Part shown: positions 172-58,226 of the stretch, piece by piece
Position numbering within the stretch: the stretch's first letter is position 1
Layout of the letters: each line of letters begins with the position of its first letter
Assembly (NCBI GenBank): GCA_964016885.1
Contig: OZ024741.1
Coordinates: forward strand, 139,810,001-139,874,000
Direction of reading: 5' to 3'
Length of the DNA stretch: 64,000 nucleotides
Source: Eledone cirrhosa
Taxonomy: Eukaryota
The notes under the pieces: generated by a model
The model's database searches: none
What the model saw: the letters and a program-made list of their open reading frames with translations, nothing else
Told to the model about the DNA's origin: nothing
Program-made: the position numbers and the translations under genes

Positions 172-628
<457 letters not shown>

Positions 629-12398: not shown

Positions 12399-12510
<112 letters not shown>

Positions 12511-15096: not shown

Positions 15097-15136
<40 letters not shown>

Positions 15137-15253
15137 TTGAAATAAAATGAAAACGAAATTTCATTTCTCACACTTAGTACGGCACTTACTTAAATGTAAG
15201 CATGTGTGTATACGTACATACATATATGTATACAGACGTACAGTAGCATGCAC

Positions 15254-15296
<43 letters not shown>

Positions 15297-15463
15297 TATA
15301 CATATATACATACAGGTACACATACATATATGCACGTATCAGTTTAGCGGACGCTTATTATAACGCCGCTTTGTTCGTTTGTAAACAAACTGAACAGCCT
15401 GAATTTTATGCCGTACGGTGTTAAGGCAACCACGTCACCTGTTTGTTCAACACTGACACAGGA

Positions 15464-15506
15464 ACGATGTACTAGTTTCAAGCTTGTTAGCTATCATCAG
15501 CACCGT
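15464..15506 (-). ncRNA. Minimal type I HHR (array copy 1)
   Basis: Reverse complement of acggtg-CTGATGA-tagctaacaagctt-GAAA-ctag-TA-catcgt. Confidence 0.85.
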
Positions 15507-15945
15507 ATACCCTTCTGCCAGATAGTTGAACGTTCGAAAGTATATATTTTCCTTATGAAAATTAACGGCTGAGCAGCCTAATTTGCATATCGAGTGAGTA
15601 TAGTCGGTCAGGCATACCGAAAACGATAAGTTGAAATAAAATGAAAACGAAATTTCATTTCTCACTCTTAGTACGGCACTTACTTAAATGTAAGCATGTG
15701 TGTATACGTACATACATATATGTATACAGACGTACAGTAGCATGCACATATATACATATATATATATATATACATATATATACATATATACATACAGGTA
15801 CACATACATATATGCACGTATCAGTTTAGCGGACGCTTATTATAACGCCGCTTTGTTCGTTTGTAAACAAACTGAACAGCCTGAATTTTATGCCGTACGG
15901 TGTTAAGGCAACCACGTCACCTTTTTGTTCAACACTGACACAGGA

Positions 15946-15988
15946 ACGATGTACTAGTTTCAAGCTTGTTAGCTATCATCAGCACCGT
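15946..15988 (-). ncRNA. Minimal type I HHR (array copy 2)
   Basis: Same motif as copy 1. Confidence 0.85.
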
Positions 15989-16229
15989 ATACCCTTCTGC
16001 CAGATAGTTGAACGTTCGAAAGTATATACTTTCCTTATGAAAATTAACGGCTGAGCAGCCTAATTTGCATATCGAGTGAGTATAGTCGGTCAGGCATACC
16101 GAAAACGATAAGTTGAAATAAAATGAAAACGAAATTTCATTTCTCACTCTTAGTACGGCACTTACTTAAATGTAAGCATGTGTGTATACGTACATACATA
16201 TATGTATACAGACGTACAGTAGCATGCAC

Positions 16230-16272
<43 letters not shown>

Positions 16273-16439
16273 TATACATATATACATACAGGTACACATA
16301 CATATATGCACGTATCAGTTTAGCGGACGCTTATTATAACGCCGCTTTGTTCGTTTGTAAACAAACTGAACAGCCTGAATGTTATGCCGTACGGTGTTAA
16401 GGCAACCACGTCACCTTTTTGTTCAACACTGACACAGGA

Positions 16440-16482
16440 ACGATGTACTAGTTTCAAGCTTGTTAGCTATCATCAGCACCGT
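16440..16482 (-). ncRNA. Minimal type I HHR (array copy 3)
   Basis: Same motif as copy 1. Confidence 0.85.
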
Positions 16483-16732
16483 ATACCCTTCTGCTAGATA
16501 GTTGAACGTTCGAAAGTATATACTTTCCTTATGAAAATTAACGGCTGAGCAGCCTAATTTGCATATCGAAAGAGTGACAAATGAAATTTCGTTTTCATTT
16601 TATTTCAACTTATCGTTTTCGGTATGCCTGACCGACTATACTCACTCGATATGCAAATTAGGCTGCTCAGCCGTTAATTTTCATAAGGAAAGTATATACT
16701 TTCGAACGTTCAACTATCTCGCAGAAGGGTAT

Positions 16733-16775
16733 ACGGTGCTGATGACAGCTAACAAGCTTGAAACTAGTACATCGT
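16733..16775 (+). ncRNA. Minimal type I HHR (array copy 4)
   Basis: acggtg-CTGATGA-cagctaacaagctt-GAAA-ctag-TA-catcgt. Confidence 0.85.
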
Positions 16776-16948
16776 TCCTGTGTCAGTGTTGAACAAAAAG
16801 GTGACGTGGTTGCCTTAACACCGTACGGCATAAAATTCAGGCTGTTCAGTTTGTTTACAAACGAACAAAGCGGCGTTATAATAAGCGTCCGCTAAACTGA
16901 TACGTGCATATATGTATGTGTACCTGTATGTATATATGTATATATATG

Positions 16949-16979
<31 letters not shown>

Positions 16980-17220
16980 GTGCATGCTACTGTACGTCTG
17001 TATACATATATGTATGTACGTATACACACATGCTTACATTTAAGTAAGTGCCGTACTAAGGGTGAGAAATGAAATTTCGTTTTCATTTTATTTCAACTTA
17101 TCGTTTTCGGTATGCCTGACCGACTATACTCACTCGATATGCAAATTAGGCTGCTTAGCCGTTAATTTTCATAAGGAAAGTATATACTTTCGAACGTTCA
17201 ACTATCTGGCAGAAGGGTAT

Positions 17221-17263
17221 ACGGTGCTGATGATAGCTAACAAGCTTGAAACTAGTACATCGT
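17221..17263 (+). ncRNA. Minimal type I HHR (array copy 5)
   Basis: 6-bp stem I acggtg/catcgt, intact CTGATGA and GAAA, stem II agct/agct, palindromic CTAG stem III, GUA site. Confidence 0.87.
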
Positions 17264-17420
17264 TCCTGTGTCAGTGTTGAACAAAAAGGTGACGTGGTTG
17301 CCTTAACACCGTACGGCATAAAATTCAGGCTGTTCAGTTTGTCTACAAACGAACAAAGCGGCGTTATAATAAGCGTCCGCTAAACTGATACGTGCATATA
17401 TGTATGTGTACCTGTATGTG

Positions 17421-17479
<59 letters not shown>

Positions 17480-17943
17480 GTGCATGCTACTGTACGTCTG
17501 TATACATATATGTATGTACGTATACACACATGCTTTCATATATATATATATATATATATACATAAATATAAATTAGCGAGAATCGTTTTCAGCTCAGGAA
17601 TTAACGAAAATCAACGTCCGATATGTGTGGCAAGCGGTATATGGTTCATATGAATCAGAGCTACGACATATGTTAAGGGCCAAACACACTGAGATGATGG
17701 TTAAACATATGATCCGCAAAGCCAAAACAAACGACCAAGTAATTCGGGTCAAACAATATATATATATGTGTTGATACTTTCCCGGACCCTGGAGTGATGG
17801 TAAAATCCAGTATTGGTTTCTGCGACTACAAAATCAGGTACTGTCCGCCTACATAAAGAATGTTGGGCTTCTGGTGATATGATGAACAAGGCAGTCGTGT
17901 TATCAACGGGTTTTGCTCCAAAATGCTATAGATAGTGTGGCTA

Positions 17944-18091
17944 TTATTTGGAACTCCTTTATCCCTCAATAGCCAGAATCTTTTCGCTAGGTTTGTACAA
18001 GTTCTCATATCAGGTTTCGTTTACACACCGGGTAATTCGACATAGGCGTTCTTCCCTGATTCGTTGTCTCTCAGGTCCAGTAACGCAGACT
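17944..18091. repeat. ~148-bp dispersed repeat, second copy at ~23214-23360, both next to (TA)n
   Basis: atttggaactcctttatccctcaatagc...ctctcaggtccagtaacg shared by both copies. Confidence 0.85.
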
Positions 18092-18145
18092 ACCAGTATA
18101 TATATATATGTGTGTGTGTGTGTATATGCATGTATATATGTATGA

Positions 18146-21954
<3,809 letters not shown>

Positions 21955-22030: not shown

Positions 22031-22070
<40 letters not shown>

Positions 22071-22074
<4 letters not shown>

Positions 22075-23165
22075 GAAGCTTGTCCTCATCAGTGGCCATC
22101 CAACCATCGTAGGCATTTCGTCGCATTAGAGGCCATATACTTCAGGTTGGTGCGAGCAGCGGCTAAAGAAAAGTCGTTGCGACAGTAAATAAGGGGGACG
22201 CTAGGGTAAACGAACAAAATGGTTTAAGCACCAGAAAGTAATGAAGAAGGAAACAAGTCCCAGATTTCTATGAATATAAATTCGGTGAAATCGTGAACGA
22301 GAGAATAAAGACCATCAAACCTGGTTGAAATGTGAGCAAAGAAGGAATTTCGCACAGGTCTAACGGGAGGAAGAAGGAGTCTGGTCTGCGAATTCGGTAA
22401 ACATAAGTTCAGTGAAGTCGCAGACGAGAGAGAGTGAGAAAAAAAATTCATACCGGCTTGGCAAAGTGCCCGCGAGAAAAGGAATACGGACAGGTCAAAC
22501 GGGAAGAAAGGTGAGGAGGAGAGGTAGTGACAGAGAGTGAGTGAATGAAAGGTGTGGAAGAGGCTAACAGAGAGAGAGACTGCTAGAAAGGGTAAAAACA
22601 CAAAGAACGAAACAGACTGGTGGCAGCAGAGGAAAAATATATGTGTAAATATGGTAATAATGGAGCTGCGGCGTTGCAAATGGGTTACATATGAAAAAAT
22701 GTGTCCTCATCAGTGGCCATGCAACCGTCGTAGGCATTTCGTCGCATTAGAGGCCATATACCTCAGGTTGGTGCGAGCAACGGCTAAAAAAAAGTCGTTG
22801 GGACACGTAAATAAGGGGGACGCTAGGGTAAATGAACAAAATGGTTTAAGCAGCAGAAAGTTATGAAGAAGAAAACAAGTCCCAGATTTCTATGAATATA
22901 AATTCGGTGAAATCGTGAACGAGAGAATAAAGACCATCAAACCTGGTTGCAATGTGAGCAAGGAAGGAATTTCGCACAGGTCTAACGGGAGGAAGAAGCG
23001 TCCCCCTTATTTACGTGTCCCAACGACTTTTTTTTAGCCGTTGCTCGCACCAACCTGAGGTATATGGCCTCTAATGCGCCGAAATGCCTACGACGGTTGG
23101 ATGGCCCCTGATGAGGACAAACGTTTTCATTTGTAACCCATTTGCGGCGCCGCAGCTCCATTATT

Positions 23166-23170
<5 letters not shown>
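22071..23170. repeat. Partial-tandem (~621-bp period) plus inverted non-coding element in (TA)n; PLE pLTR-like architecture
   Basis: 22082-22377 repeats at 22703-22998; 22997-23170 is an inverted copy of ~22650-22825. Confidence 0.8.
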
Positions 23171-23206
<36 letters not shown>

Positions 23207-23540
23207 TTTCCCTAATTTGGAACTCCTTTATCCCTCAATAGCAAGAATGTTTTCGCCAGGTTTGTACAGGTTCTCATATCAGGTTTCCTTTACACACCGG
23301 GTAATTCGACATAGGAGTTCTTCCCTGATTCGTTGTCTCTCAGGTCCAGTAACGGAGACTTCACATATATATATATTTGGCGATATATGGCTGCGCTTTC
23401 TAGCAGCAAGCCTACCCGCCGTAAGCAACCAATCACACGCTTTCTCTCTGGCTGGTACACAGCTACATAGCGATCTTAGCCATTTTTGAATCTAAATTTG
23501 GCGCGGTCGGTTTGAGAAAATAAATGTCTGATTCTGAGTT

Positions 23541-26310: not shown

Positions 26311-29300
26311 TTTATTATTATTATTATTTGCATTTATCTTGCTTTATGTTTATACGAGTTATCACCAAGTCACAACCAGTGACCTCAAGAGACAACAAGG
26401 TCCGCCATGTTCAAGAAAGAACACACATATTCACACATGCATCCTTAGTGTTTAGACTTGTGATGTACTTATATTGACAGGATCTTCCTTAGTATATGGG
26501 CAGTTCCCATTAGTACTATCTTTTGTATTTCTCCTATACGCGGGTTTCCTGGGATTTGCGATAAGTAGTCGTTAGACCCCTTAGGTATCATTCCCAGAGC
26601 GCCTACAACCACTGGTATTGTTTTAGTTCTCAATTTCCACATTTTTCCAATTTCTATCTCCAGGTCCTTATACTTGCTCAATTTTTCAAATGTTTTTATA
26701 GATACATTCTTGTCTATTGGAACAGACATATCAATTAGCAGGCATACCCTCCTTTGAAAGTCCTTCAATATTATATCAGGTCTATTTGCATCTATTTTTC
26801 GGTCTGTTTGGATGCTAAAGTTCCACAAGATTGAGATGTGATCTTTTTCAAGTATGGGAGGTGGTTGATGCTCCCACCAATTCTTTTGATGGGGCAGGTC
26901 AAAATGCTTGCACATTATCCAATGTATGTATTGTGCAGCTCTGTCATGCCTGTTTAGGTATTCGGTTGGAGCTATAGGACTGCATATTGAAATTATATGG
27001 TCAATGGTCTCTGGTTGTTTTTTGCATACACGGCATAATGGGCTGCACCCATTTTTTATTATGTTGGCTTGGTAATTTTTTGTTGGCAGACACTGATCTT
27101 GTGCGGATATAATCAGTCCTTCAGTCTCCGATTTCAGTCCAGAGGATGCCAACCACTGATGGGTTAAAGTTTTGTCAACATCAGGATTGTTAGCTCGCTC
27201 TGGGTATTTTCCATACAGAGGCTTTTCTTGCCATTTCTTAGCCAGTTTCTGTAGCAGTTCTTTCTTTACAGTTACTTTTACCTGCTTTGCTTTTTCTGTG
27301 TTTTCCATTTCAGCAGTAAATGGGACTTCTGAAATTTGTAGTCCATTACTGTATCTTTGTGCATCTTTTGTAATGGAATATGATCTTTTGGTGCTTTCGT
27401 GTTTCAAAACGAGTTTGATCATCCAATCATGTGATTCCCTTAGATATGTGGATAATCCAATTGTTGCAGTTTTCAACGCAATGTCTAACTGGATTAACCC
27501 ACGTCCTCCTTCTTTCCTAGGGAGATATATTCTATCTATGTCTGCCTTAGGGTGATGCATTCTGTGCATGGTTAAGAATTTTCGGATTTTTGTATCGAGC
27601 CTACGGATCTCTGTGCTTGACCAGTTGATGACATTGTAACTGTAGGTTACTACTGGTATGGCAAGCGTGTTTATGGCATCGATCCTATTCCTTGCATTCA
27701 ATTCCGTTCTTAAGATTGCTCTGACTCTGCGGTAACATTCCTTCCTTATCCTTTCCCTCATTGTCGAGTGCTTGATTCCCTCTCCTTCAAAAACACCTAG
27801 ATATTTGTAAGTTTGTTCTTGATCAAGCTCTCTTATCACGTTCCCCCGATCAAGATTAATGTCTGAACTCTTCAGCAGCTTTCCTCTGGTGAACGTTGCT
27901 TTGGCGCATTTATCCAGTCCAAACTCCATTTTAATGTCATCACTGAACTGCTTCACAGTGGATAATAGCCCTTGCAATTGTTCATCATTTTTTGCAAATA
28001 GTTTCAGGTCATCCATGTAGAACAGGTGATTAATGGTTTTGTCATAGACTCTATATCCATGTTTTGTTTCATTGAGCATTTTACTTAATGGTATAAGTGC
28101 GATGCAGAATAAAAGCGGTGATAAAGAGTCACCCTGAAAAATTCCACAATTAATGTTAACTTCTCCAGCTTCCAGTGAATTTGTTTCACTATTCAAAAGG
28201 AGTGTCGTTCTCCATGTCCTCATACTGAATGACAAAAACCTCCTGATAACGGGGGATATTTTGAAAATCTCTAAACATTTTTCAATCCAACTGTGTGGCA
28301 AACTATCAAATGCTTTTTTATAATCTATCCAAGCAATCGATAGATTTTTGTGTCTATTATGACAATCTTCCAGTATCATTTTGTTAACCAGAAGCTGATC
28401 CTTACAGCCATATGAGCCTCGTTTACACCCTTTCTGCTCAATGGGAAATAGGTCATTTGTTATCAGGTGGTCATATGTGTATTCAGTTAGGACTGATGTT
28501 AAAATTTTATACATTGTGGTCAAGCAGGTTATCGGTCTGTAATTTTTGGGATTGTTTGTCTCATCATTCTTCGGTAGCAGGAATGTAATGCCGTTAACTA
28601 GCCATGATGGTATCTTTTGTGGCTCCTTAACTATTTCATTGTAAAGTTGGGCTAACAGCTCATGAGACTCTGTGAAGGCATTTATCCAAAAGTTTTGTAT
28701 TTTGTCTTTTCCTGGGGATTTCCATTTGCTGGTTTTTCTTAGAGCCAAGCGCAGCTGTTCAACTGTTATATTTTCCCATGTTTGTTCTTCAAGGTGAGCT
28801 GTTTCTTTCATTTGTCTGTCTATCCATGGGGCATGTATGTTATGAACTTTTTCTTCGGCCCAGATCTTTTCCCAGAATTCTTGCACTTCCTCCTTGGGTG
28901 GTATTGATTTAGCAGTTATTGTTGACTTACCAATTTTTCTGTAGAAGTTTCTTTGGTTGTTTTTGAACATATTATTGTCCTTATAGAATCTAGATCGTTT
29001 TTCAAAGCGCCTTATACGAGCAGCTTTGGCCGACACTTTTTGCTTGATTGTTTCTATCAGCATGTCTATGTCACATGTTGATCTTATACTGTACTTTTTT
29101 TTCAATTTTCTAAGTTTAGTTTGTTTAACATGTTCACCTACTTTATAGTTTGTTAAAATTTCTATGTCAGATCGGAGAAGGTTTATTTGGCGATTGATGT
29201 TATCTTGCCAAGTAGATTTCTTGTGGGAATTCCTTTGTTTTTTCATCTTCACTCCACATAAGTGAGTGGTGACTTTAGCCGATGCATAATAGAGATGATT

Positions 29301-31215
29301 TAAGTCAGTAATGCTTAGTTTGTTTGTGATGATAATGTTTTTGAGAATTATGTTAGTCTTGTGTATTATCTTTTGATTCTGTTTGGAGTTCTGGATCTTA
29401 GGGAGGGTGTCTCGTTCCCCCATGTCAGATTCTTTCATTTTCATCCATTCGATCATAATTTCATCCTTCAAGTTGGCAAGTTCATTCTCATTCATTTCTT
29501 TATCATTTACGATCTCATTATTTTCATTTGGAGTTTCATCCTGAGCATGCACTCCCTCCACTTTTTCGCTCCTTTCTTTAATTTGTTCTGTTGCCAGTGA
29601 TTCCGCCCCAACTCTGGGATTCGAAGTGTTACAATTTACCTCGTTTTCACTGACACATGCTTCATTTTCCCTTCGCTGACTTTGTGCTACTAGCTTGATC
29701 TGATCAATTTCTATATCAGTTAGTAACTTTTTTCTTACAATATTTCTTCGTATATTGGCTAGTTTGTTACTGTCAATATAGCCTCTGTTTTCGGGATGTT
29801 TCTTTTTCCAGTTGATATATGTTTGCTCTGTATTCGATGTATTTGATGGGTAGTACATGGCAGTGTAGAAAGCCTCAAGGACTTCTTTATTATCTTCCCT
29901 TGACCATTTTTCTCTCTTTTTCTTTGGATTTCTTGGTGGTGAGCATGGAGGGCCAACAGTAGGAGTATTCCGGTTATGGGAGGTCTCCAGCTCCGAAGTG
30001 ATGGGAAGGTTTGAACCATTAGCTGATTTTTCGACCCCAGTCTGGTTCCTCTCTGAGGGACGCGGCCCTTTTTTACCCGGGTGACGGCCGATCCGGTATG
30101 AGATTTCATCATTAGACATCTACTTTATTTTGTCGCGTTTTATCCTTATCCGCCAAGGGGTAATCTTTTCGTGTTACCACTTCTAGAACGAGTGTCAACC
30201 AAGACTAGAGGGGTCGTTCTCCCCTAGAGACATGGCTATTCCCCGCCGGCCGCCATCCCGGTATTTCTTGGTCACGGGGTTTTCTTTTTGTTGTTTTTTT
30301 TAAATTGTTATTATCATGAGTGGTTCCTTACTGTGAGCATTGCGTGGCTTAAGAATGAAATTATTAATAATTGTCTCCACTCCAGGCCAGCAATCACCCA
30401 GTGCATTACAATAATATAATATACTTTTTGTTGTAGTTGGCTGTTATTGCTGCTGGCTATGTCGGTGGTGGTGCCGGGGCTTTTTATATTGTTGGTGAGG
30501 AAGGGGTGAGCCAGCAGTCCCATAATTGTTGATGTAGACCTTTGTCCGTGGCAAGGTCACCAAGTCAATCTATTTATATCTTTTGCTAGCCTCTCTCTTG
30601 TCTAGTGCTACCACCCCCTTCCCTTTTCTCTCTCAAGTTAACAGGGGAATAGTGTCAGTAGCATTGAATGAGTGGTGGCGGCGATGATGGATGTGGTGGG
30701 GTGGTGGCAGCGGTGGTGTTGTGGTTACTGATATAGTATCTATGAGTTTGTGTTCGTATGTTTAATATATATTTTCATTATATTTTGTGTTGACATATTC
30801 CCGTAAAATTTGAATTAAACATTTTTTTAAATTTGAGACAATAATAATAGTAATTATTATTATGATGCCGGTGAAGTTGCCGTTATATTTAGTGTGATGG
30901 GATAGGTAGTGTATCAAGTTTCTGGTGTTGGTGAAATTGAAATTGCCGCTGTTCTATATAGTGTAGACAGAGGGTGTTTTGTTCCATTTATAACCATTTT
31001 CTTTTTTTGAATACAAAATATATAATACAAAATTGAATATTTGAGCGATACAACAATATAATATGGATCCGAAACTTTATGGGACCTCATTCGGTGCCTT
31101 TATGCAACATTTGTGCTAAGAATTGTTCTTTCACAATTGATTTAAATATGTTAAGAATCAAAAAACTTACGGGAGCAATTTCGTGACGTTCTACCACCTC
31201 GTGCGTCTTCTTCCC
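26311..31215 (-). mobile_element. Apparently full-length R4/Dong-like non-LTR retrotransposon in (TAA)n
   Basis: Intact single ORF, ~140-bp 3' UTR ending in (TAA)n at 26312-26327, and ~1.1-kb 5' region sharing motifs with the neighbouring element. The 5' boundary is inferred. Confidence 0.88.
26469..30119 (-). CDS. R4/Dong-clade ORF: reverse transcriptase + CCHC + restriction-like endonuclease (1216 aa)
   Basis: WKSPGKD, NYRPITCL, EQKG, WIDYKKAFDS, GIFQGDSLSPLLF, HLFYMDDLKL, FGLDKC, YKYLG, GGRGL, CRVC..ETIDHIISIC, RHD, NRPDI..ID..EKLSKY. Confidence 0.96.
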   Translation of the reverse strand: MSNDEISYRIGRHPGKKGPRPSERNQTGVEKSANGSNLPITSELETSHNRNTPTVGPPCSPPRNPKKKREKWSREDNKEVLEAFYTAMYYPSNTSNTEQTYINWKKKHPENRGYIDSNKLANIRRNIVRKKLLTDIEIDQIKLVAQSQRRENEACVSENEVNCNTSNPRVGAESLATEQIKERSEKVEGVHAQDETPNENNEIVNDKEMNENELANLKDEIMIEWMKMKESDMGERDTLPKIQNSKQNQKIIHKTNIILKNIIITNKLSITDLNHLYYASAKVTTHLCGVKMKKQRNSHKKSTWQDNINRQINLLRSDIEILTNYKVGEHVKQTKLRKLKKKYSIRSTCDIDMLIETIKQKVSAKAARIRRFEKRSRFYKDNNMFKNNQRNFYRKIGKSTITAKSIPPKEEVQEFWEKIWAEEKVHNIHAPWIDRQMKETAHLEEQTWENITVEQLRLALRKTSKWKSPGKDKIQNFWINAFTESHELLAQLYNEIVKEPQKIPSWLVNGITFLLPKNDETNNPKNYRPITCLTTMYKILTSVLTEYTYDHLITNDLFPIEQKGCKRGSYGCKDQLLVNKMILEDCHNRHKNLSIAWIDYKKAFDSLPHSWIEKCLEIFKISPVIRRFLSFSMRTWRTTLLLNSETNSLEAGEVNINCGIFQGDSLSPLLFCIALIPLSKMLNETKHGYRVYDKTINHLFYMDDLKLFAKNDEQLQGLLSTVKQFSDDIKMEFGLDKCAKATFTRGKLLKSSDINLDRGNVIRELDQEQTYKYLGVFEGEGIKHSTMRERIRKECYRRVRAILRTELNARNRIDAINTLAIPVVTYSYNVINWSSTEIRRLDTKIRKFLTMHRMHHPKADIDRIYLPRKEGGRGLIQLDIALKTATIGLSTYLRESHDWMIKLVLKHESTKRSYSITKDAQRYSNGLQISEVPFTAEMENTEKAKQVKVTVKKELLQKLAKKWQEKPLYGKYPERANNPDVDKTLTHQWLASSGLKSETEGLIISAQDQCLPTKNYQANIIKNGCSPLCRVCKKQPETIDHIISICSPIAPTEYLNRHDRAAQYIHWIMCKHFDLPHQKNWWEHQPPPILEKDHISILWNFSIQTDRKIDANRPDIILKDFQRRVCLLIDMSVPIDKNVSIKTFEKLSKYKDLEIEIGKMWKLRTKTIPVVVGALGMIPKGSNDYLSQIPGNPRIGEIQKIVLMGTAHILRKILSI

Positions 31216-40285: not shown

Positions 40286-40713
40286 TTGGTAAACGGAATA
40301 GAAAATGCTGACAAATTGTTCACATTTGAAAAATGGTTTAATTAGGAATAAAAGAGTATTAGTGATTGTATGGGTTAGTATTCAGTTGTGGTTTTAAGTT
40401 TTTTAGTTTTTACCGGTTGCGCATTTCTTTAATGGTTTTCAAAAATAATTTTGAGATAGAGTGTCCGTGCTGTTTGCTCTGAATTGAGCAAACAGCACGG
40501 ACACTCTATCTCAAAATTATTTTTGAAAAGCATTTAGAAATGCGCAACCGGTAAAAACTTAAAAACTTAAAACCACAACTGAATACTAACCCATACAATC
40601 ACTAATACTCTTTTATTCCTAATTAAACCATTTTTCAACTGTGAACAATTTGTCAGCATTTTCTATTCCGTTTACCAATATATAATAACTTGTGTGTTAC
40701 ACCTCTATTCTTT

Positions 40714-41603: not shown

Positions 41604-41987
41604 GAAAGGTATAGAAAACATTGTAGTAAAAAGCCAACAGTATTCCATAATATATATATATATATATAAGTATGGTAGGGCGACATATCAACTTCTGATT
41701 TTAATGTTATATATATTTGTATGATTGTGTGTGAGTGTGCGTGTATGTGTGTGGGTGTGCATATATAACTAGTCTTTACATATATATATATATATATATG
41801 TAGATAAATCTACCAAGAGTTTACGGTAGTGTCCAATCCGTATGAAGAACTCAATGTATTCCGGATATCATGGAAAGAAGAGATGTAATGTAAATCCACT
41901 TTCGGTGAAAGATAAACGGTATACAGAGTCAAGATAAAATATTAAACAAATAATGAACAAACAATTCCTTATATTAAACAAAAAAAG

Positions 41988-42142
41988 TTCACTATTTAAC
42001 GATCGTTTCTAGGGCATATATGTGTTATAATTGGTATGCATATTCAACAGATCTATGTACAAAATTATACAAAATTATACAAATTATCAAGATTAAATAT
42101 ACATACCTAACACATATATACGCCGTCTTCAGAAATAATGAA
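41988..42142 (-). ncRNA. Long-stem-II HHR (inverted pLTR copy)
   Basis: Reverse complement of 45895-46049. Confidence 0.72.
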
Positions 42143-42964
42143 GTATATTTATTGATAATAACAACAATTCAAAATATCAGTTCAAAATTGACCAATGAAA
42201 ACACAAAGGGTTAAAAGCAGTTTGGTGTGTGTATATACATGTAAAATCCTTACACATATTTTACAATAATGTGTGTATAATTTGTATGTGCATACTAAAA
42301 AGATGGATGCAAACACAAAATTTCAAGGTTAATATCTCTGTAAGCTTAATGCGCTGATAAGATGCGCAATGATACTTATGGAGTCAAGCATATAAATATA
42401 TTTTTTTCATACTCACACATATCAGTATAATCACACATACATGCGCGTATATGCATAAATATACACATAACCACGAACATACAAACACACACACTCCCCC
42501 ACTCACATTTATATATGTGGATATAAAATCATAAGCAAATAGAAATTAAGTCACTCACATAAAACACTGGCACACACATTTCAAGATCAAGATACAGAAA
42601 TTAGGTGGGAGGGGGGGGAGGGGTCAGTATTAGATTGTCAGAGCAGACTGCCTAATATAAATGTATCTATAAATTAAGAAAAATAAAAAAATAAAAACAA
42701 TAAAATATAATAAATATAATATAATGTACATACACATACAGATATACATACACATACATACATGTACGCGCACATAGAGATATTTACGCATACACACATA
42801 CACACATACGTATACAGTCATACACACACATACACTTACACGAACATACACATACACATATAAAAAGATATATATACACACACACACACACGCGCAACAC
42901 ATACACACATACACATATATATAAAAAATAGATAATAAAGATATATATCCATATATATATATAT

Positions 42965-43021
<57 letters not shown>

Positions 43022-43119
43022 TATACACATATATACCCATACATCTAAATATACATACACATACATACACACATACATGTATATACATGTACATACATAT
43101 ACGCACATCGATATACATA

Positions 43120-43161
<42 letters not shown>

Positions 43162-43504
43162 CACTCACATAGACATAAAGATACATACACACACAACTTA
43201 CATACACACGCATATATATATATATATATATATATAGATGTACCTTCATACATAGAATTAGATATATAATCATACATACATATGCACCTACTTATACTCA
43301 TATAAATAAATACATACGCTTCCATATATGTGTATACACATAAAAAACAATACCACCTCACCAAACTCAGACATACAAATGAAAATAATAATAAAAAAAC
43401 GCATATGTATATACATACACACACGCATTAATAGAGATATATATATATACACACATACATACACACACATATATATACATACACACACATATACATACAC
43501 ATAC

Positions 43505-43557
<53 letters not shown>

Positions 43558-43879
43558 TAGACTCATATATATATATATATACACATATATATATATAAAA
43601 ACATATATATCCACACACTCATACCACCATAAATACACATACAAACACCCACATGTATATATATATATATATATCCACATACACACACGTATACATATAT
43701 ACATATACACATATACACATACATATATATATATACACACACATAAAAAACAGACATGCACATATATATATATATATATATATTTCATTACTCTTATATA
43801 TACACATAGTATATATACATACACAACCTCACTTATACACATATACACATAAGTTATATTACAATAATAATAAAGAATA

Positions 43880-43940
<61 letters not shown>

Positions 43941-44060
43941 TACACACATACACATACATACATACACATAAATATATACATACATAAATACACACATACG
44001 AATAAAGACATATATTCACACATAGACACCTATATACATATATATATATATATATATATC

Positions 44061-44112
<52 letters not shown>

Positions 44113-45894
44113 CACACACACACACACACACAGACACACATACACACTCACATATATATATATATATATGTGTATGTGAGTGTGCGCACATACACATATA
44201 TACACACACACATACAAACACACACAAACACATACATATGCATACGTGCACACACACACACATATATCACATGGATACGAAGATAAACATATAAATAGAG
44301 AGACATACAAATATATACACAACACATATACACATACATACATACACGCTTATACATATACATACATATATACACATAAATATATTCCTATATACAAGCA
44401 TACACATACATACACACACATACACATACATACACATATACATACCACACATTCACATACACATACATATATAATACATATATATACATATATATACATA
44501 CATATGTATGTACAATCATATATACACACTCAATCTTACATTCATATTTACATGCTCATATATGTATTTTTATATTTAGAAATAAATACCAAAACCTATA
44601 TAGACACCTACCTACATATATATCCATACATATACGCTTACAAATACAGATGATAATAGTATGGGGGAAAGGGGGGGTTTGGAGAAGGGGATCAAAGTAA
44701 ATATATGTTTCAAGAAACATATAATATTTTCCGTATCTTAATTCAATGTATGTTCTTACATATTTTCAGTGCTAGGAAATACGAAATCTATGCATCTCAA
44801 AATAAATAAGTATACCATTAATCATATGTTAACTAAACCAAAGATAGTCAACATATTGATTTCTAAGGTGTAAATTAGTTAGGTTTATAATATTTGAAGC
44901 AGAATTATGAAGTCAAACAGTAGTAGATTATTAATTACATTATAACTAAATTAAAGTTAATAACGTTATGGTATCAATATTAGGAGATGAATTTAGTAAT
45001 AGGGAAAAGAAACCCAAATAAAAATAAAATAAAGTATTACATCGGTAGTAGCATATAAATTATATGTTAACTAAATTAAAAATTATATATTTATTTCAAT
45101 AGTATACGTTAATTAGTATATGTTAATTAGGTATACAATACATAAAGCAGATATTGTATTTCATCAATAGCATAATATAATTATATGCAAATAAAAATCA
45201 AAATTAATACGCATACATATACATATACATACACATACACATATACATACATATACACACATATATATATATATATACATATATATACACATATATACAT
45301 ATATACACACATAAACATACATACAGATACACATACACAACACACACATATACATATACATATACATATACATATCTTTTTCAAAAAATTGCACAGAATA
45401 TATTAACTAGGTATATATCCAAAACACATCCCATTCTATGATTACATGACATTCTGCAATTCGTCTGTACAAGGATACTAATTTTAAGCAAATTAAAATT
45501 AAAGTTTTAGGTTGATTAAAACAAAAACCAAATAATAAAAATATTTGTGTGTTTGTATGTTCGTGGTTATGTGTATATTTATGCATATACGCGCATGTAT
45601 GTGTGATTATACTGATATGTGTGAGTATGAAAAAAATATATTTATATGCTTGACTCCATAAGTATCATTGCGCATCTTATCAGCGCATTAAGCTTACAGA
45701 GATATTAACCTTGAAATTTTGTGTTTGCATCCATCTTTTTAGTATGCACATACAAATTATACACACATTATTGTAAAATATGTGTAAGGATTTTACATGT
45801 ATATACACACACCAAACTGCTTTTAACCCTTTGTGTTTTCATTGGTCAATTTTGAACTGATATTTTGAATTGTTGTTATTATCAATAAATATAC

Positions 45895-46049
45895 TTCATT
45901 ATTTCTGAAGACGGCGTATATATGTGTTAGGTATGTATATTTAATCTTGATAATTTGTATAATTTTGTATAATTTTGTACATAGATCTGTTGAATATGCA
46001 TACCAATTATAACACATATATGCCCTAGAAACGATCGTTAAATAGTGAA
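45895..46049 (+). ncRNA. Type I HHR with 116-nt stem II domain in 5' pLTR
   Basis: ttcattattt-CTGAAGA-[116 nt, largely paired]-GAAA-cgatcg-TT-aaatagtgaa: 10-bp stem I, palindromic stem III, GUU site. Confidence 0.75.
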
Positions 46050-46392
46050 CTTTTTTTGTTTAATATAAGGAATTGTTTGTTCATTATTTGTTTAATATTT
46101 TATCTTGACTCTGTATACCGTTTATCTTTCACCGAAAGTGGATTTACATTACATCTCTTCTTTCCATGATATCCGGAATACATTGAGTTCTTCATACGGA
46201 TTGGACACTACCGTAAACTCTTGGTAGATTTATCTACATAATTTTGCTCCTATTTTCACGGAAATATTCGTATTTTTGTACTGTATGTGTGTATTAATTT
46301 TATATTTATGTATAAACATATATATATGTATGATTTTGTAAACCCATATACATTTAGTTGAGCTCTTTCAATTGTCCATCATCCATATCACA

Positions 46393-48834
46393 ATGGAAAA
46401 ACAATATTTAGGAACCTCCTTAAAAAACATACCAATACCTTCTAAGGACGACTTCTTACTCCTTATGATTCAGAAAACTAATAATTTTATCAGAAGGGTT
46501 AGATGGAGAGCCTACCACTTCGATAGAAAATCTAAACAAGCAGATCGGAAATATATGTATGATTTCAATACTTACAAGAATCCACCACACAACTTTTTAC
46601 TTGAAGACTTCGAGAAAGACCTTTTTAATTTAATTAAACACCTCAAATTTAAAAAGTATAAATCCGTCTTTCAAAAGGACCTTGATTCTACCCTATTGGA
46701 CCTAAAAAAGTCTAAAAAAATCCATGTCCACTCGGACAAAACTGGTAACTTGTATCATATGGATATTGAACATTATAATGAGTTCATATATAAAGAACTC
46801 AGAAAAAATTATAAAAAATCTAATAATGTGTCACTCACCAACATCAACAACAAAACACACAACATAGTAAAAAAACTAAATATTGAAGATAGTACTGAAC
46901 CTTTGGCATTGAAAAGACCACACTTCAACCTGAAAGATCACAAATCTAACTTTAACTCTAATCCTTCTATTAGACTTATATGTCCCTCCAAATCAGATAT
47001 TGGAATAATTAGCAAAAAAATTTTAGATAGAGTCATCCCACAAATAAGAAAATACGTTATTTTACCACTCTGGGAAAACACCTCCCAGGTAATTAATTGG
47101 TTTAAAAATATTAGGTGTAAATCTTCTGCTTCTTTCCTACAATTTGATATAGATAATTACTATTCTTCTATATCACCCATACTCCTGAACAAAGCATTAA
47201 TATTTGCTAAAAATAGATCTAATTTAACTTCGGATGACATTAACATTATTACACATGCTAGACAAACACTTATTGAATTTCAGAATGAATACTGGACCAG
47301 AAACACATACAGTAATCTTTTTGATATTACTATGGGTTCAAGCGATTCCGCCCAAATTACTGATCTTGTGTGCCTCTTTCTCCTTTTCAACATAAATGCC
47401 TCTTTTCCCCACCTCAAAGGTGGTTTATATCGTGATGACTGTCTTCTTCTTTCTAACAACCTTAGCCTTTCAGAAATCGAAAAAAACAAAAAGCATATTA
47501 GAACTTTCCTTAAAGACTATTATAATCTTAATATTACTTTTGAAAAAACAAGTAAAGTAGTAAATTTCCTAGATATAACTTTAGATTTAGCTACGGGTAT
47601 ATACCAACCTTACCATAAACCTAACCAAAACTTACATTACATACACTCACAATCTAATCACCCTAAATCTATCCTTAAAAACCTTGCATATAATATATCA
47701 CTTAGAATTTCTAACCTTTCTTCTAACCAAGATGTATTTGATAAAAATGCGACCTTTTATAATGAAGCTCTAGATAGAAGTGGCCACAAAAATAGATTAG
47801 AGTATATACCTTCTACTAAAAATACTGAAAGCATACAGCATAATATTACCAACAAACACCAAATGAAAAGTACACACCTAAATGCCACCCACAATATACC
47901 CCAAAATACTAAATCTTCTAATATAAAGTATAGTAACCCTCAAAAAACTACTCATCATACAACTATAATAAATATTAATAATAAAACTCCTAATAAAAAA
48001 GATATAACACCTAAATCTACAAATATAACTAAAAATAGTTGTGGTGAGATCATTAACATTAATCCTCCTAGTAAAAATCATGATACAACATATAAAAATA
48101 ATAAAAATAATAAACAACATAGAAACCGTAATAGACGAGTTACTTGGTATAATGCTCCTTTTAATTTACAAGTTAAGGATAATATTGCTAAAAAATTTTT
48201 TTATATCCTTGAGAAAAACTTCCCGCCAAACCACAAATACCATCAAATCTTAAATAGGTCTACAGTTAAATTCTCATACTCTACAACAAATAACATAAAA
48301 CAAAATATAAGTGCATATAATGCATATAAATGTAAGAAAACCATAAGTATACCACCAGTACATCAAATTAACAATAATATCTCCTCAAATACAGAATTAA
48401 CGAAAGGATGTAACTGTAGAAACAAAACAAACTGCCCATTAAAAGGGAATTGTCTTGTTAACAACATAGTCTATAAATGTAATGTTAAAACTAAAGATTC
48501 TATTTGCTCATATATAGGAGCTACCTCTAACAATTTTAAGACAAGGTATAATACCCACAAACATAGCTTTAAAAATGCCGCACTGGCTAATACAACATCT
48601 CTAGCAGAAAAAATCAATAGTTATAAAAATAAAAATATAAAATATGATTTGACCTGGAGTGTGCTCAAAAGAGCCACCCCTTATCAAAATAATAGAAAGG
48701 AATGTAGATTATGTTCCCAAGAACTATTTGAAATAATGAAGTCTAAGGATATCTTATTAAATAAACGACAGGAATTAATTATATCGTGTAATCATAAACT
48801 AAAAAAAACATTCAAATATTATAAACCTAATTAA
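46393..48834 (+). CDS. Intact PLE polyprotein, RT + C-terminal GIY-YIG endonuclease (813 aa from first ATG)
   Basis: SLKNIP, RVRWRA, SDKTGNLY, LKDHK..RLICP, QFDIDNYYSSI (motif A), FDITMGS (B), GLYRDD (C), NFLDITLDL, SNHP, CNC..CPL..C, IVYKC..YIGAT..FKTRYNTH, CRLC..E, LLNKRQE..CNH. Confidence 0.96.
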   Translation: MEKQYLGTSLKNIPIPSKDDFLLLMIQKTNNFIRRVRWRAYHFDRKSKQADRKYMYDFNTYKNPPHNFLLEDFEKDLFNLIKHLKFKKYKSVFQKDLDSTLLDLKKSKKIHVHSDKTGNLYHMDIEHYNEFIYKELRKNYKKSNNVSLTNINNKTHNIVKKLNIEDSTEPLALKRPHFNLKDHKSNFNSNPSIRLICPSKSDIGIISKKILDRVIPQIRKYVILPLWENTSQVINWFKNIRCKSSASFLQFDIDNYYSSISPILLNKALIFAKNRSNLTSDDINIITHARQTLIEFQNEYWTRNTYSNLFDITMGSSDSAQITDLVCLFLLFNINASFPHLKGGLYRDDCLLLSNNLSLSEIEKNKKHIRTFLKDYYNLNITFEKTSKVVNFLDITLDLATGIYQPYHKPNQNLHYIHSQSNHPKSILKNLAYNISLRISNLSSNQDVFDKNATFYNEALDRSGHKNRLEYIPSTKNTESIQHNITNKHQMKSTHLNATHNIPQNTKSSNIKYSNPQKTTHHTTIININNKTPNKKDITPKSTNITKNSCGEIININPPSKNHDTTYKNNKNNKQHRNRNRRVTWYNAPFNLQVKDNIAKKFFYILEKNFPPNHKYHQILNRSTVKFSYSTTNNIKQNISAYNAYKCKKTISIPPVHQINNNISSNTELTKGCNCRNKTNCPLKGNCLVNNIVYKCNVKTKDSICSYIGATSNNFKTRYNTHKHSFKNAALANTTSLAEKINSYKNKNIKYDLTWSVLKRATPYQNNRKECRLCSQELFEIMKSKDILLNKRQELIISCNHKLKKTFKYYKPN

Positions 48835-50565
48835 TAACATTATTCTAGAAATTAATTTAATTTAAATGTTAGTTAACCTATAAATTTAATTTAATTAATA
48901 TTTTATTACAGATGTGAAAATATTATGTAATCATAAATTTTGAAAAACCTTTAAATATTACTAATATATACTCAGTAATTTAATTTATAGATTAATTTTA
49001 ATTTATTTAAACCTTTTTATTATATTTTTTTTATTATATTTCTTTACAGATAAAATATAACAAAATAATATCATGTATCCAATGACGGAGAAAGAATTTT
49101 TAGTATTATAGACCTAATTAATATACATTTTGGAAATATATTTATTATTTGGTTTTTGTTTTAATCAACCTAAAACTTTAATTTTAATTTGCTTAAAATT
49201 AGTATCCTTGTACAGACGAATTGCAGAATGTCATGTAATCATAGAATGGGATGTGTTTTGGATATATACCTAGTTAATATATTCTGTGCAATTTTTTGAA
49301 AAAGATATGTATATGTATATGTATATGTATATGTGTGTGTTGTGTATGTGTATCTGTATGTATGTTTATGTGTGTATATATGTATATATGTGTATATATA
49401 TGTATATATATATATATATGTGTGTATATGTATGTATATGTGTATGTGTATGTATATGTATATGTATGCGTATTAATTTTGATTTTTATTTGCATATAAT
49501 TATATTATGCTATTGATGAAATACAATATCTGCTTTATGTATTGTATACCTAATTAACATATACTAATTAACGTATACTATTGAAATAAATATATAATTT
49601 TTAATTTAGTTAACATATAATTTATATGCTACTACCGATGTAATACTTTATTTTATTTTTATTTGGGTTTCTTTTCCCTATTACTAAATTCATCTCCTAA
49701 TATTGATACCATAACGTTATTAACTTTAATTTAGTTATAATGTAATTAATAATCTACTACTGTTTGACTTCATAATTCTGCTTCAAATATTATAAACCTA
49801 ACTAATTTACACCTTAGAAATCAATATGTTGACTATCTTTGGTTTAGTTAACATATGATTAATGGTATACTTATTTATTTTGAGATGCATAGATTTCGTA
49901 TTTCCTAGCACTGAAAATATGTAAGAACATACATTGAATTAAGATACGGAAAATATTATATGTTTCTTGAAACATATATTTACTTTGATCCCCTTCTCCA
50001 AACCCCCCCTTTCCCCCATACTATTATCATCTGTATTTGTAAGCGTATATGTATGGATATATATGTAGGTAGGTGTCTATATAGGTTTTGGTATTTATTT
50101 CTAAATATAAAAATACATATATGAGCATGTAAATATGAATGTAAGATTGAGTGTGTATATATGATTGTACATACATATGTATGTATATATATGTATATAT
50201 ATGTATTATATATGTATGTGTATGTGAATGTGTGGTATGTATATGTGTATGTATGTGTATGTGTGTGTATGTATGTGTATGCTTGTATATAGGAATATAT
50301 TTATGTGTATATATGTATGTATATGTATAAGCGTGTATGTATGTATGTGTATATGTGTTGTGTATATATTTGTATGTCTCTCTATTTATATGTTTATCTT
50401 CGTATCCATGTGATATATGTGTGTGTGTGTGCACGTATGCATATGTATGTGTTTGTGTGTGTTTGTATGTGTGTGTGTATATATGTGTATGTGCGCACAC
50501 TCACATACACATATATATATATATATATGTGAGTGTGTATGTGTGTCTGTGTGTGTGTGTGTGTG

Positions 50566-50615
<50 letters not shown>

Positions 50616-50755
50616 GATATATATATATATATATATATGTATATAGGTGTCTATGTGTGAATATATGTCTTTATTCGTATGTGTGTATTTATGTATGTAT
50701 ATATTTATGTGTATGTATGTATGTGTATGTGTGTATGTATATATATATATATATG

Positions 50756-50794
<39 letters not shown>

Positions 50795-51116
50795 TATTCT
50801 TTATTATTATTGTAATATAACTTATGTGTATATGTGTATAAGTGAGGTTGTGTATGTATATATACTATGTGTATATATAAGAGTAATGAAATATATATAT
50901 ATATATATATATGTGCATGTCTGTTTTTTATGTGTGTATATATATATATATGTATGTGTATATGTGTATATGTATATATGTATACGTGTGTGTATGTGGA
51001 TATATATATATATATATACATGTGGGTGTTTGTATGTGTATTTATGGTGGTATGAGTGTGTGGATATATATGTTTTTATATATATATATGTGTATATATA
51101 TATATATATGAGTCTA

Positions 51117-51169
<53 letters not shown>

Positions 51170-51512
51170 GTATGTGTATGTATATGTGTGTGTATGTATA
51201 TATATGTGTGTGTATGTATGTGTGTATATATATATATCTCTATTAATGCGTGTGTGTATGTATATACATATGCGTTTTTTTATTATTATTTTCATTTGTA
51301 TGTCTGAGTTTGGTGAGGTGGTATTGTTTTTTATGTGTATACACATATATGGAAGCGTATGTATTTATTTATATGAGTATAAGTAGGTGCATATGTATGT
51401 ATGATTATATATCTAATTCTATGTATGAAGGTACATCTATATATATATATATATATATATATGCGTGTGTATGTAAGTTGTGTGTGTATGTATCTTTATG
51501 TCTATGTGAGTG

Positions 51513-51554
<42 letters not shown>

Positions 51555-51652
51555 TATGTATATCGATGTGCGTATATGTATGTACATGTATATACATGTA
51601 TGTGTGTATGTATGTGTATGTATATTTAGATGTATGGGTATATATGTGTATA

Positions 51653-51711
<59 letters not shown>

Positions 51712-52533
51712 ATATATATATATATGGATATATATCTTTATTATCTATTTTTTATATATATGTGTATGTGTGTATGTGTTGCGCGTGTGTGTGTGTGTGT
51801 ATATATATCTTTTTATATGTGTATGTGTATGTTCGTGTAAGTGTATGTGTGTGTATGACTGTATACGTATGTGTGTATGTGTGTATGCGTAAATATCTCT
51901 ATGTGCGCGTACATGTATGTATGTGTATGTATATCTGTATGTGTATGTACATTATATTATATTTATTATATTTTATTGTTTTTATTTTTTTATTTTTCTT
52001 AATTTATAGATACATTTATATTAGGCAGTCTGCTCTGACAATCTAATACTGACCCCTCCCCCCCCTCCCACCTAATTTCTGTATCTTGATCTTGAAATGT
52101 GTGTGCCAGTGTTTTATGTGAGTGACTTAATTTCTATTTGCTTATGATTTTATATCCACATATATAAATGTGAGTGGGGGAGTGTGTGTGTTTGTATGTT
52201 CGTGGTTATGTGTATATTTATGCATATACGCGCATGTATGTGTGATTATACTGATATGTGTGAGTATGAAAAAAATATATTTATATGCTTGACTCCATAA
52301 GTATCATTGCGCATCTTATCAGCGCATTAAGCTTACAGAGATATTAACCTTGAAATTTTGTGTTTGCATCCATCTTTTTAGTATGCACATACAAATTATA
52401 CACACATTATTGTAAAATATGTGTAAGGATTTTACATGTATATACACACACCAAACTGCTTTTAACCCTTTGTGTTTTCATTGGTCAATTTTGAACTGAT
52501 ATTTTGAATTGTTGTTATTATCAATAAATATAC

Positions 52534-52688
52534 TTCATTATTTCTGAAGACGGCGTATATATGTGTTAGGTATGTATATTTAATCTTGATAATTTGTATA
52601 ATTTTGTATAATTTTGTACATAGATCTGTTGAATATGCATACCAATTATAACACATATATGCCCTAGAAACGATCGTTAAATAGTGAA
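52534..52688 (+). ncRNA. Long-stem-II HHR (3' pLTR copy)
   Basis: Same sequence as 45895-46049 (offset 6639). Confidence 0.72.
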
Positions 52689-52733
52689 CTTTTTTTGTTT
52701 AATATAAGGAATTGTTTGTTCATTATTTGTTTA

Positions 52734-52774
<41 letters not shown>

Positions 52775-56455: not shown

Positions 56456-56526
<71 letters not shown>

Positions 56527-56615
56527 GTATAACACTGGAGGGTAATATCCGTAGTGGTAGAGCACTCAGTCCAAGGGACGAGCTAGGTAGAAGTGGTTAC
56601 ACAACATTTAGGTCA

Positions 56616-56665
56616 CCATACCCAGAACAATTGTTTCACCTTCGCGGATCGTCAGCTTGTAATGG
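56616..56665 (-). ncRNA. Minimal HHR candidate in a short element between microsatellites
   Basis: ag-CTGACGA-tccgcgaaggt-GAAA-caattg-TT-ct; palindromic stem III; stems I and II short. Confidence 0.55.
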
Positions 56666-56835
56666 ACATGGTTATACGGAACAGGAAGGACAACCGTACG
56701 AACGTGCATGCGCAGAAACGATCACTTCACACAGGCAATACTAAATTATTGTATGATTAGTTAAAATAACCTGACATTGTCGTTTTATTTTAATTGTTAA
56801 TTTAATACTTATGGAAGCATCTTAGCTACCATCAG

Positions 56836-56894
<59 letters not shown>

Positions 56895-56895
56895 C

Positions 56896-56962
<67 letters not shown>

Positions 56963-56976
56963 CATATATATATATG

Positions 56977-57064
<88 letters not shown>

Positions 57065-57068
57065 TAAT

Positions 57069-57316: not shown

Positions 57317-57350
<34 letters not shown>

Positions 57351-58226
57351 GTTATACTTGGGGAGGGTCACATCGTTGTAATAATATTCCCAGAAATAAT
57401 AACAGAACACACTGTCTGGTTGGTTTTCGCTGCTGTATCTTTTATATCTCCACAGTTAATACATTTGGTCCTCAATGTTTATCATTGACTGACCAACGGT
57501 CAAAAATCCAGATATAATATAGATATAAACACATATATATAGTCTAACGAAGTTCTTTTGGTGCACATCTGCAACATCATCAGTGGTACTATTACGTTCC
57601 TCCTGTTGTATTGTATGTCTACGCCATTTTCATTTTAGCTAAACTGAAAAAATGAATGGAATAACAACACCCAAACAAACAATACTGACTTAAGAGAAAT
57701 ATAAATAACTAAATAAAGAAATATTACACAAGCACAATAACAACAAACACATATAAACACACAATAGTAAACTAAGAGAGAATACAATAACCAAAACAGT
57801 CACCCAAACGCGAACACACACCAAACACTATACACACGCAAACGCATGCGCAGAGAAGAAGACAAAAATAAAAAATAAATAAACATATATAATAAAAATG
57901 GCGTAGACATACAATACAACAGGAGGAACATAATAGTACCACTGATGATGTTACATATGTGCAACGAAAGAACTTTGTTAGACTATATATATGTGTTATA
58001 TCTATATTATCTCTGTATTTTTGACCGTTGGTCAGTCAATGATAAACATTGAGGACGAAATGAATTAACTGTGGAGCTATAAAAGATAGAGAAGCGAAAA
58101 CCAACCAAACAGTGAGTGCTTTTTGTTATTATTTCTGGCAATATTATTATAACAATATGAACCTCCCCATGTATAACAATATTTGTTTCGACACACAGAT
58201 TCATATAAAAAACTTCGCAAAATAAA
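57351..58226 (+). mobile_element. Non-coding relative of the YVDD PLE 3' end, with inverted 5' copy
   Basis: 57351-~57632 mirrors ~57893-58178. Shares cgcatgcgca, aaaatggcgtag, an HHR-like CTGATGA..GAAAgaacTT (57934-57985), ctccc..gtataacaatat and the tail with 3790-4150. Confidence 0.8.

Follow-up and report, generated by a model that had tools for sequence, protein, structure and literature searches.

A Hydra-type Penelope-like element of Eledone cirrhosa with kilobases of compound microsatellite in its 3' region

Anatomy of the F1 insertion

The window analyzed here, a 64,000-nt stretch of the Eledone cirrhosa genome (GCA_964016885.1, contig OZ024741.1, forward-strand positions 139,810,001 to 139,874,000), contains a Penelope-like element (PLE), termed F1, that carries long compound TA/TG microsatellites downstream of its open reading frame (ORF). 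All coordinates below are window positions. The ORF list and alignment revealed an intact plus-strand ORF of 813 aa (46393-48834), with reverse transcriptase (RT) motifs (RWR at residue 37, DKT at 115, YRDD at 346), an N/K/T-rich insert, a CxCX5C linker (673) and a GIY-YIG-type nuclease (YIG 707, CxxC 771, CxH 799). Upstream lie a 5' leader (46104-46392, plus strand) and a 5' pseudo-long terminal repeat (pseudo-LTR; 45546-46103, plus strand), and self-BLAST of the window identified the latter as a 100% identical direct repeat of 52185-52742. Downstream follows a 3.9-kb 3' region (48835-52742, plus strand), putatively an untranslated region, whose sense strand is T/G-rich. To the left, an inverted, 5'-truncated copy on the minus strand (41797-45546) combines the 3' region (equal to 49134-52742) with a 137-nt extension past the tail-to-head junction (41933-41797, equal to 46104-46240). 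Self-BLAST recovered these arms as an inverted match of 99.7% over 3,615 columns (41934-45546 against 52742-49134), together with a second inverted match of 100% (41797-42491 against 46240-45546). The leader part 46104-46240 corresponds to the "tail" that occurs on the left end only, a concept taken from the available parts of PMC8557442 and PMC11167929.

The repeating unit of F1 is 46104-52742 (6,639 bp). The right product of the insertion comprises one unit plus 558 bp, and the left product comprises 3.75 kb and starts 137 nt deeper into the next unit. Pseudo-LTR, partial tandem, inverted truncated copy and one-sided tail are all present, as for endonuclease-bearing (EN+) Penelope-like elements. 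Both outer ends adjoin (TA)n, namely a run at 41781-41799 on the left and (TA)17 at 52740-52773 on the right, which are the likely targets. Hence, the F1 insertion has the usual tandem-plus-inverted PLE structure set between two (TA)n runs, in agreement with the first-pass annotation of this DNA, which had proposed (TA)n targeting.

Repeat scans located two compound TA/TG microsatellites in the 3' region, both on the plus strand: a short one (49305-49473) and a long one of 1.8 kb (50151-51952), in which TG occurs 297 times on the sense strand and CA 23 times. Placed downstream of the ORF stop (48834) and ahead of the hammerhead-bearing end, the long tract recurs, as does the short one, on the minus strand of the inverted arm (42724-44529 and 45207-45375). 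The two long copies are 99.5% identical and have 1,674 of 1,732 distinct 31-mers in common. Since far fewer 31-mers (61 of 1,732; 66.7% identity) are shared with the other long TA/TG tract in the window, the match between the arms is not a low-complexity artefact. Global alignment of the arms (3,613 and 3,609 bp) revealed three AT-unit indels, one AC-unit indel and one substitution, every one within the long tract. The arms are otherwise identical, apart from a single mismatch at the inversion junction (45540). The first-pass annotation had described a tract lying between ORF and pseudo-LTR, reproduced almost base for base in the inverted arm and differing mainly in (TA) counts, and these descriptions hold. 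A higher-order internal duplication in the long tract was rejected, the longest interrupted repeat being 16 bp with pure runs set aside. An apparent avoidance of poly(A) signals (AATAAA twice on the sense strand and 19 times on the opposite strand) is in keeping with base composition.

The inverted arm could alternatively be a later duplication at the DNA level, or a fold-back of assembly or reads, with the tract having arisen at the locus. The arms are nearly identical, such structures are known to trouble assemblers, and the structure is seen only in the assembly. However, there is no simple palindrome here: a switch over the tail-to-head junction is required to build the left arm, and this arm has its own (TA)n at its end. 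It runs contiguously through 49134-52742 and then 46104-46240, a combination present nowhere else in the locus. Because the junction occurs elsewhere at the locus only with 558 bp ahead of it, a simple fold-back cannot account for the left arm, whereas copying from a template in tandem or circular form can. An arm crossing the junction cannot arise by one-step local duplication either, and both arms were therefore likely reverse-transcribed together with the tract. In addition, an intact ORF and the lack of substitutions outside the tract leave scant time for 1.8 kb of irregular repeat to form, and the same design is found at 621-4176 and 15132-17539. We thus consider a duplication or fold-back highly improbable. 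Since the arms carry no substitutions outside the tract and the junction and the ORF is open, the F1 insertion is young, and the tract was with little doubt part of the template and reverse-transcribed with the element. For this insertion, the proposal of the first-pass annotation that the tract was copied along with the element is likely right, the left arm spanning the 3' region and the tail without a break.

A motif scan and folding identified a Type I hammerhead motif near the right end of F1 (52534-52688, plus strand), with a CUGAAGA core, a 116-nt stem II region, GAAA, a palindromic stem III and a predicted cut after 52678. The motif is found three times in the insertion, also in the 5' pseudo-LTR (45895-46049) and in the inverted arm (41988-42142, minus strand). 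Its fold has a z-score of -6.5 (0 of 200 shuffles), and the scan gave a mean background of 0.13 matches across 30 shuffled windows. The 3' end of F1 bears the canonical hammerhead core and predicted stems I-III, with a long stem II. No hammerhead was among the 150 of 195 Rfam matches listed, and a short-stem hammerhead model misses the long-stem motif of F1. The microRNA-family matches in the same list (150 of 195) were discarded, being sub-threshold and produced by dinucleotide repeats and one hairpin. This hairpin, near-perfect and 100 bp long, lies in unique sequence at 40433-40532, and the sub-threshold Rfam matches reflect its stem alone.

Clade assignment and 3' regions of relatives

The F1 protein has 1,052 homologs, some of which carry the GIY-YIG family PF01541, and a Pfam scan of the protein itself returned no families. 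Its closest named homologs are weak (Solemya and Argonauta, 42%). The order of YRDD (346) and YIG (707) places the nuclease at the C-terminus. The RWK motif of the Hydra clade appears as the conservative variant RWR at residue 37, DKT at 115 replaces DKG, and the Hydra-type cysteine motifs are present (CNCRNKTNC 673, CRLC 771, CNH 799), with similar ones in a second family, F2, described below. A CCHH motif was not seen in F1 in an alignment judged by eye. Membership in Naiad or Chlamys, which have an N-terminal nuclease, a CxC domain and no canonical hammerhead, was rejected in view of the C-terminal nuclease and the hammerhead of F1. By motif tests, F1 thus classifies as an intact Hydra-type Penelope-like retroelement. 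The N/K/T-rich insert is in frame, about 100 aa long (about 47800-48110) and situated between RT thumb and nuclease linker; in a protein alignment it is missing from most relatives and shorter in a few. A quick tree (36 rows) placed all 13 metagenome loci used on a branch of support 100, to which neither F1 and F2 nor eight database proteins belonged. F1 and F2 were not sisters in it, and a single origin is possible. The root is unsure in this tree, which has a very long outgroup and leaves out the published Hydra reference proteins. One locus within the metagenome branch (L035) has a hammerhead that matches one listed for Penelope-1_NV.

For the Hydra clade, (TA)n preference, tandem and inverted structure and one-sided tails are established (Craig et al., 2021; PMC8557442). 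Compared with the available parts of that paper, F1 shares the single ORF with RT and GIY-YIG, the RWK-like, DKT, CxCX5C, CxxC and CxH motifs, the hammerhead near the 3' end, insertion into (TA)n, the partial tandem with an inverted 5'-truncated copy, and the tail at one end. F1 differs in its unit of 6.6 kb (1,080-3,045 bp in the 27 listed Hydra families, 2,507 bp in the octopus element Hydra-1_Obim), in its 3.9-kb 3' region with about 2 kb of microsatellite, in its 116-nt stem II region, in its tail of 137 nt instead of 30-40 bp, and in the extra N/K/T-rich insert of about 100 aa in the ORF. The 6,639-bp unit is thereby at odds with the clade trait "generally short (<3 kb)", which in the same paper is descriptive and not diagnostic. 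Apart from size, F1 appears to behave as a standard (TA)n-targeting Hydra-type PLE.

As a baseline for the 3' region we used 78 metagenome loci, of which 75 reach the C-terminal end of the protein (three lack a C-terminal match). A downstream hammerhead was found in 47 of these 75, at a median of 128 bp and a maximum of 461 bp from the stop codon; alternating repeat took up no more than 16 bp of the interval. The corresponding distances are 3,709 bp in F1 and 2,211 bp in F2. This baseline leans short, since contigs from short reads break at long tracts, and it is to be read with caution, as all 13 loci placed in the tree lie on a branch apart from F1 and F2 and the flanks of the eight database proteins were not covered. 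In the other 28 of the 75 relatives no downstream hammerhead was detected; two of them (L049, L058) have short repeats at their ends, and in the five with downstream sequence of 950-5,988 bp alternating repeat amounts to 44 bp at most. Base composition was counted in 28 of the 47 relatives (non-redundant and with a single match); in 25 of them the short 3' region is T-rich.

A second Hydra-type family and other elements in the window

F2 lies on the minus strand and has a 5'-truncated ORF of 457 aa (20494-21867) that is 44% identical to the F1 protein. A unique stretch of about 140 bp separates its stop codon from a compound TA/TG tract of 1,519 bp (18834-20352, minus strand), whose sense strand has TG 269 times and CA twice. 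Another unique stretch, of about 550 bp, leads to a hammerhead-like motif (18236-18290, minus strand), with (TA)n following from 18222. The motif was found with a model built from the motifs of 51 relatives (20.2 bits, rough E 0.003), and folding lends it no support (z -0.18). Dust-filtered BLAST gave no nucleotide match between F1 and F2, and homology of their tracts was rejected on this ground and on the 31-mers in common (61 of 1,732). TG-on-sense polarity is common to both tracts and to the 482-bp hammerhead units described below. The window contains 23 compound tracts totalling 7,129 bp (3,622 bp in F1, 1,519 bp in F2, 719 bp in the tandem of 482-bp units and 1,269 bp elsewhere), and every tract longer than 300 bp belongs to F1 or F2.

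Because F2 is built likewise, the tract is probably a regular part of the F1 family. A different history would be a one-off capture, in which the source copy gained microsatellite-rich host DNA between the ORF and a downstream hammerhead end, most of the family having a short 3' region. PLEs are able to transduce host sequence (PMC8557442, in part), the 3' region of F1 resembles host intergenic DNA with a strand composition that flips at the stop codon, and the sampled relatives have short 3' regions. Nevertheless, motif and model scans found no hammerhead remnant or (TA)n junction directly after the stop codon, with the limit that the model also misses the long-stem hammerhead of F1. Moreover, F2 would require a separate capture with the same polarity, and the terminal repeat of F1 is TG/TA-rich in the same style. 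We therefore regard a one-off capture as unlikely, although it is the strongest competitor, and prefer growth of the tract in place.

A third PLE family, with a C-terminal GIY-YIG domain, is present at 621-4176 and has the inverted-plus-tail design, with arms 100% identical and a one-sided tail of 82 nt. This tail ends where an independent copy (11123-12426) ends, and the copies are about 90-95% identical. The 3' region of this family is short, A/C-rich and free of any long tract, and its hammerhead motif lies at 3896-3930. At 15132-17539, a non-coding unit of 482 bp occurs in tandem and inverted copies between (TA)n runs, with five minimal hammerheads with palindromic stem III; compound microsatellite makes up about 130 bp of each unit. 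The arrangement resembles a non-autonomous PLE of the retrozyme type, again with microsatellite as cargo. Another element, truncated within its own tract, may end at 56520-57066 on the minus strand, where a (TA)n(TG)n run precedes a unique stretch of 170 bp, a hammerhead-like motif (56618-56663, rough E 0.004) and (TA)n. A short inverted pair (57346-58182, 90% identical) has an end similar to that of the third family and adjoins (TA)n. Rearranged inverted and direct repeats with CTGATGAGGAC motifs beside (TA)n are found at 22065-23376 and 17946-18107, where hammerhead scans were negative. Finally, an intact non-LTR retrotransposon ORF of 1,216 aa with RVT_1 lies on the minus strand at 26469-30119. 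Its best homologs are 60-68% identical over the region searched, and the nearest named match to the neighboring long interspersed nuclear element (LINE) region is weak (Penaeus, 58%).

Copying, origin and spread of the tract

Taken together, the data are best explained by a young, intact Hydra-type PLE with about 2 kb of compound TA/TG within a 3' region of 3.9 kb. This tract, carried in the RNA of the PLE, was likely reverse-transcribed twice in one (TA)n insertion, a reading to which we assign a probability of roughly 70%. The source would be a master copy arranged in tandem, or a unit of 6,639 nt that the hammerhead has processed and that may be circular. Its transcript would comprise the ORF, the tract and the hammerhead and continue into the 5' end of the following unit. 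The nuclease would nick both strands of the (TA)n target, and reverse transcription would begin at two internal positions of the transcript, equivalent to 52742 and 46240 and separated by 137 nt. One product would extend over 1.08 units and the other end after 3.75 kb, with a head-to-head join at 45546. Two-site priming and nicking of both strands are here extended to F1 from PAc, a Poseidon element of Anolis for which internal priming at two sites and nicks in both strands were described in vitro (Frangieh et al., 2024; PMC11167929, in part). F1 resembles PAc in the two internal priming sites that would yield the tail, in nicks on both strands at AT-rich DNA and in a template across the pseudo-LTR-ORF junction; PAc belongs to another clade and primes inside the start of the ORF, whereas both ends in F1 lie upstream of the ATG. 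Slippage probably enlarged the tract where it stands, the host being prone to microsatellites and the 3' region U-rich and free of constraint, and the tract is likely a passenger. Each insertion would bring the genome 2-4 kb of slippage-prone compound repeat.

We consider it likely that the tract is family-wide cargo. Sequencing runs were searched with 46240-50100; 11 of 15 rows hold part of this query and four at least half of its words (labels A-C, 0.39-0.66), and no RNA run is among the holders listed. These shares are uninformative on the 3' region, since the ORF side makes up 67% of the query. The best holder may be the source sample, and the five rows with small shares are no evidence.

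Several points weigh against this interpretation. The two arms represent one insertion and are silent on whether other copies of the F1 family carry the tract. F2 is a single truncated copy with a degenerate hammerhead. A G>C skew was present in only 11 of 28 relatives' 3' regions, which weakens the case for growth of the tract in place, and so does the prospect that two or three elements agree in polarity by coincidence. Long tracts are not general, as the third PLE family has 309 bp with A/C-rich short repeats from stop codon to hammerhead and Hydra-1_Obim is only 2,507 bp long. Compound tracts total 7,129 bp, of which 5,141 fall in F1 and F2, two elements that occupy 23% of the window; this share of 72% is biased, the window having been chosen for this feature, and is no genome-wide estimate. 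Finally, the locus is known from DNA sequence, and the in vitro mechanism comes from another clade (Poseidon).

The first-pass annotation had further suggested a feed-forward loop, in which PLEs target (TA)n and deposit new (TA)n. For minimum lengths of 10, 20 and 30 bp, the insertion has 39, 18 and 4 pure (TA) runs and the whole window 166, 90 and 50, while the insertion accounts for 17% of the window length. The density of runs is thus about that of the background at 20 bp or more and below it at 30 bp or more; the background outside the insertion includes other PLE ends. No element in the window is nested in the F1 or F2 tract. Hence, the insertion adds (TA)n targets in absolute terms, its excess consists of compound TA/TG and not of long pure (TA)n, and the loop, possible as it is, finds no backing in these counts. 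They also bear on the idea that the UG/UA-rich tract is functional, in RNA folding, in binding or in pairing with (TA)n targets, and that its new (TA)n runs feed further insertions. This idea shares carriage of the tract with our preferred explanation and differs on function. Consistent with it are the TG-on-sense polarity of F1, F2 and the 482-bp units, the (TA)n preference of Hydra elements and the 18 runs of at least 20 bp in the insertion. On the contrary, the F1 and F2 tracts are unrelated in sequence and relatives transpose without tracts. Pure (TA)n of at least 20 bp amounts to 1.6 per kb inside and 1.4 per kb outside, with longer runs (at least 30 bp) rarer inside; nested insertions are lacking, and the inverted arm is truncated in unique sequence. 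We therefore judge a functional tract to be improbable, somewhat more so than a one-off capture.

Carriage of microsatellites by PLEs, as put forward in the first-pass annotation, has precedents. In Litopenaeus vannamei, two recent Penelope copies (>98% identical) have internal simple sequence repeats (SSRs) in synteny, and Yuan et al. (2021; PMC7878876, in part) proposed carriage by transposable elements (TEs) as a route of SSR expansion, leaving open the question "How did TEs carry SSRs?" F1 is alike in being a retroelement with an internal microsatellite and in pointing to carriage as a route to SSR-rich genomes. Unlike in the passages available from that study, its clade, the tract size and the position of the tract relative to ORF and hammerhead are defined; the shrimp study, in turn, compared independent copies, whereas F1 is known from one insertion. 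In snakes, CR1-L3 and Rex LINEs seed microsatellites genome-wide (Pasquesi et al., 2018; PMC6050309, in part), again by retroelement carriage. Theirs is a simple AATAG motif at the 3' tail, and that of F1 is an internal, irregular kilobase tract upstream of a terminal ribozyme. The F1 type of anatomy is not described in the available parts of PMC3124438, PMC13282606 and bioRxiv 10.64898/2026.07.22.740005. A search of titles and abstract openings, which mostly did not cover subscription papers and excluded figures, gave no report of a kilobase microsatellite between a PLE ORF and its hammerhead. In the papers found, carriage of microsatellite by Penelope is known and its kilobase scale in a Hydra-type subgroup is apparently unreported. 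The general idea of carriage is already in print, and F1 refines it and does not overturn it. The remark in the first-pass annotation that repeat maskers would break such elements up into simple repeats is plausible.

The origin of the long irregular dinucleotide tracts that saturate some invertebrate genomes is only partly explained. The F1 locus offers an explicit anatomy for carriage, with a tract between stop codon and terminal ribozyme that is doubled by the inverted arm, so that one event deposits about 3.6 kb. Matched tract pairs of this kind allow slippage to be measured, here as four unit indels in 1.8 kb with no changes in the flanking unique sequence. Rather speculatively, several families of a Hydra-type subgroup may have had their 3' regions turned into kilobases of TG-polarized compound microsatellite and might, together with hammerhead-bearing non-autonomous partners, be the chief supplier of compound microsatellite on the kilobase scale in this genome, with short-read consensus libraries cut at the tract and maskers filing the cargo as simple repeat. 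F1 suggests that consensus lengths of PLEs may be underestimated in such genomes, and the genome-wide share of compound microsatellite that lies between PLE ORFs and hammerheads becomes cheap to measure.

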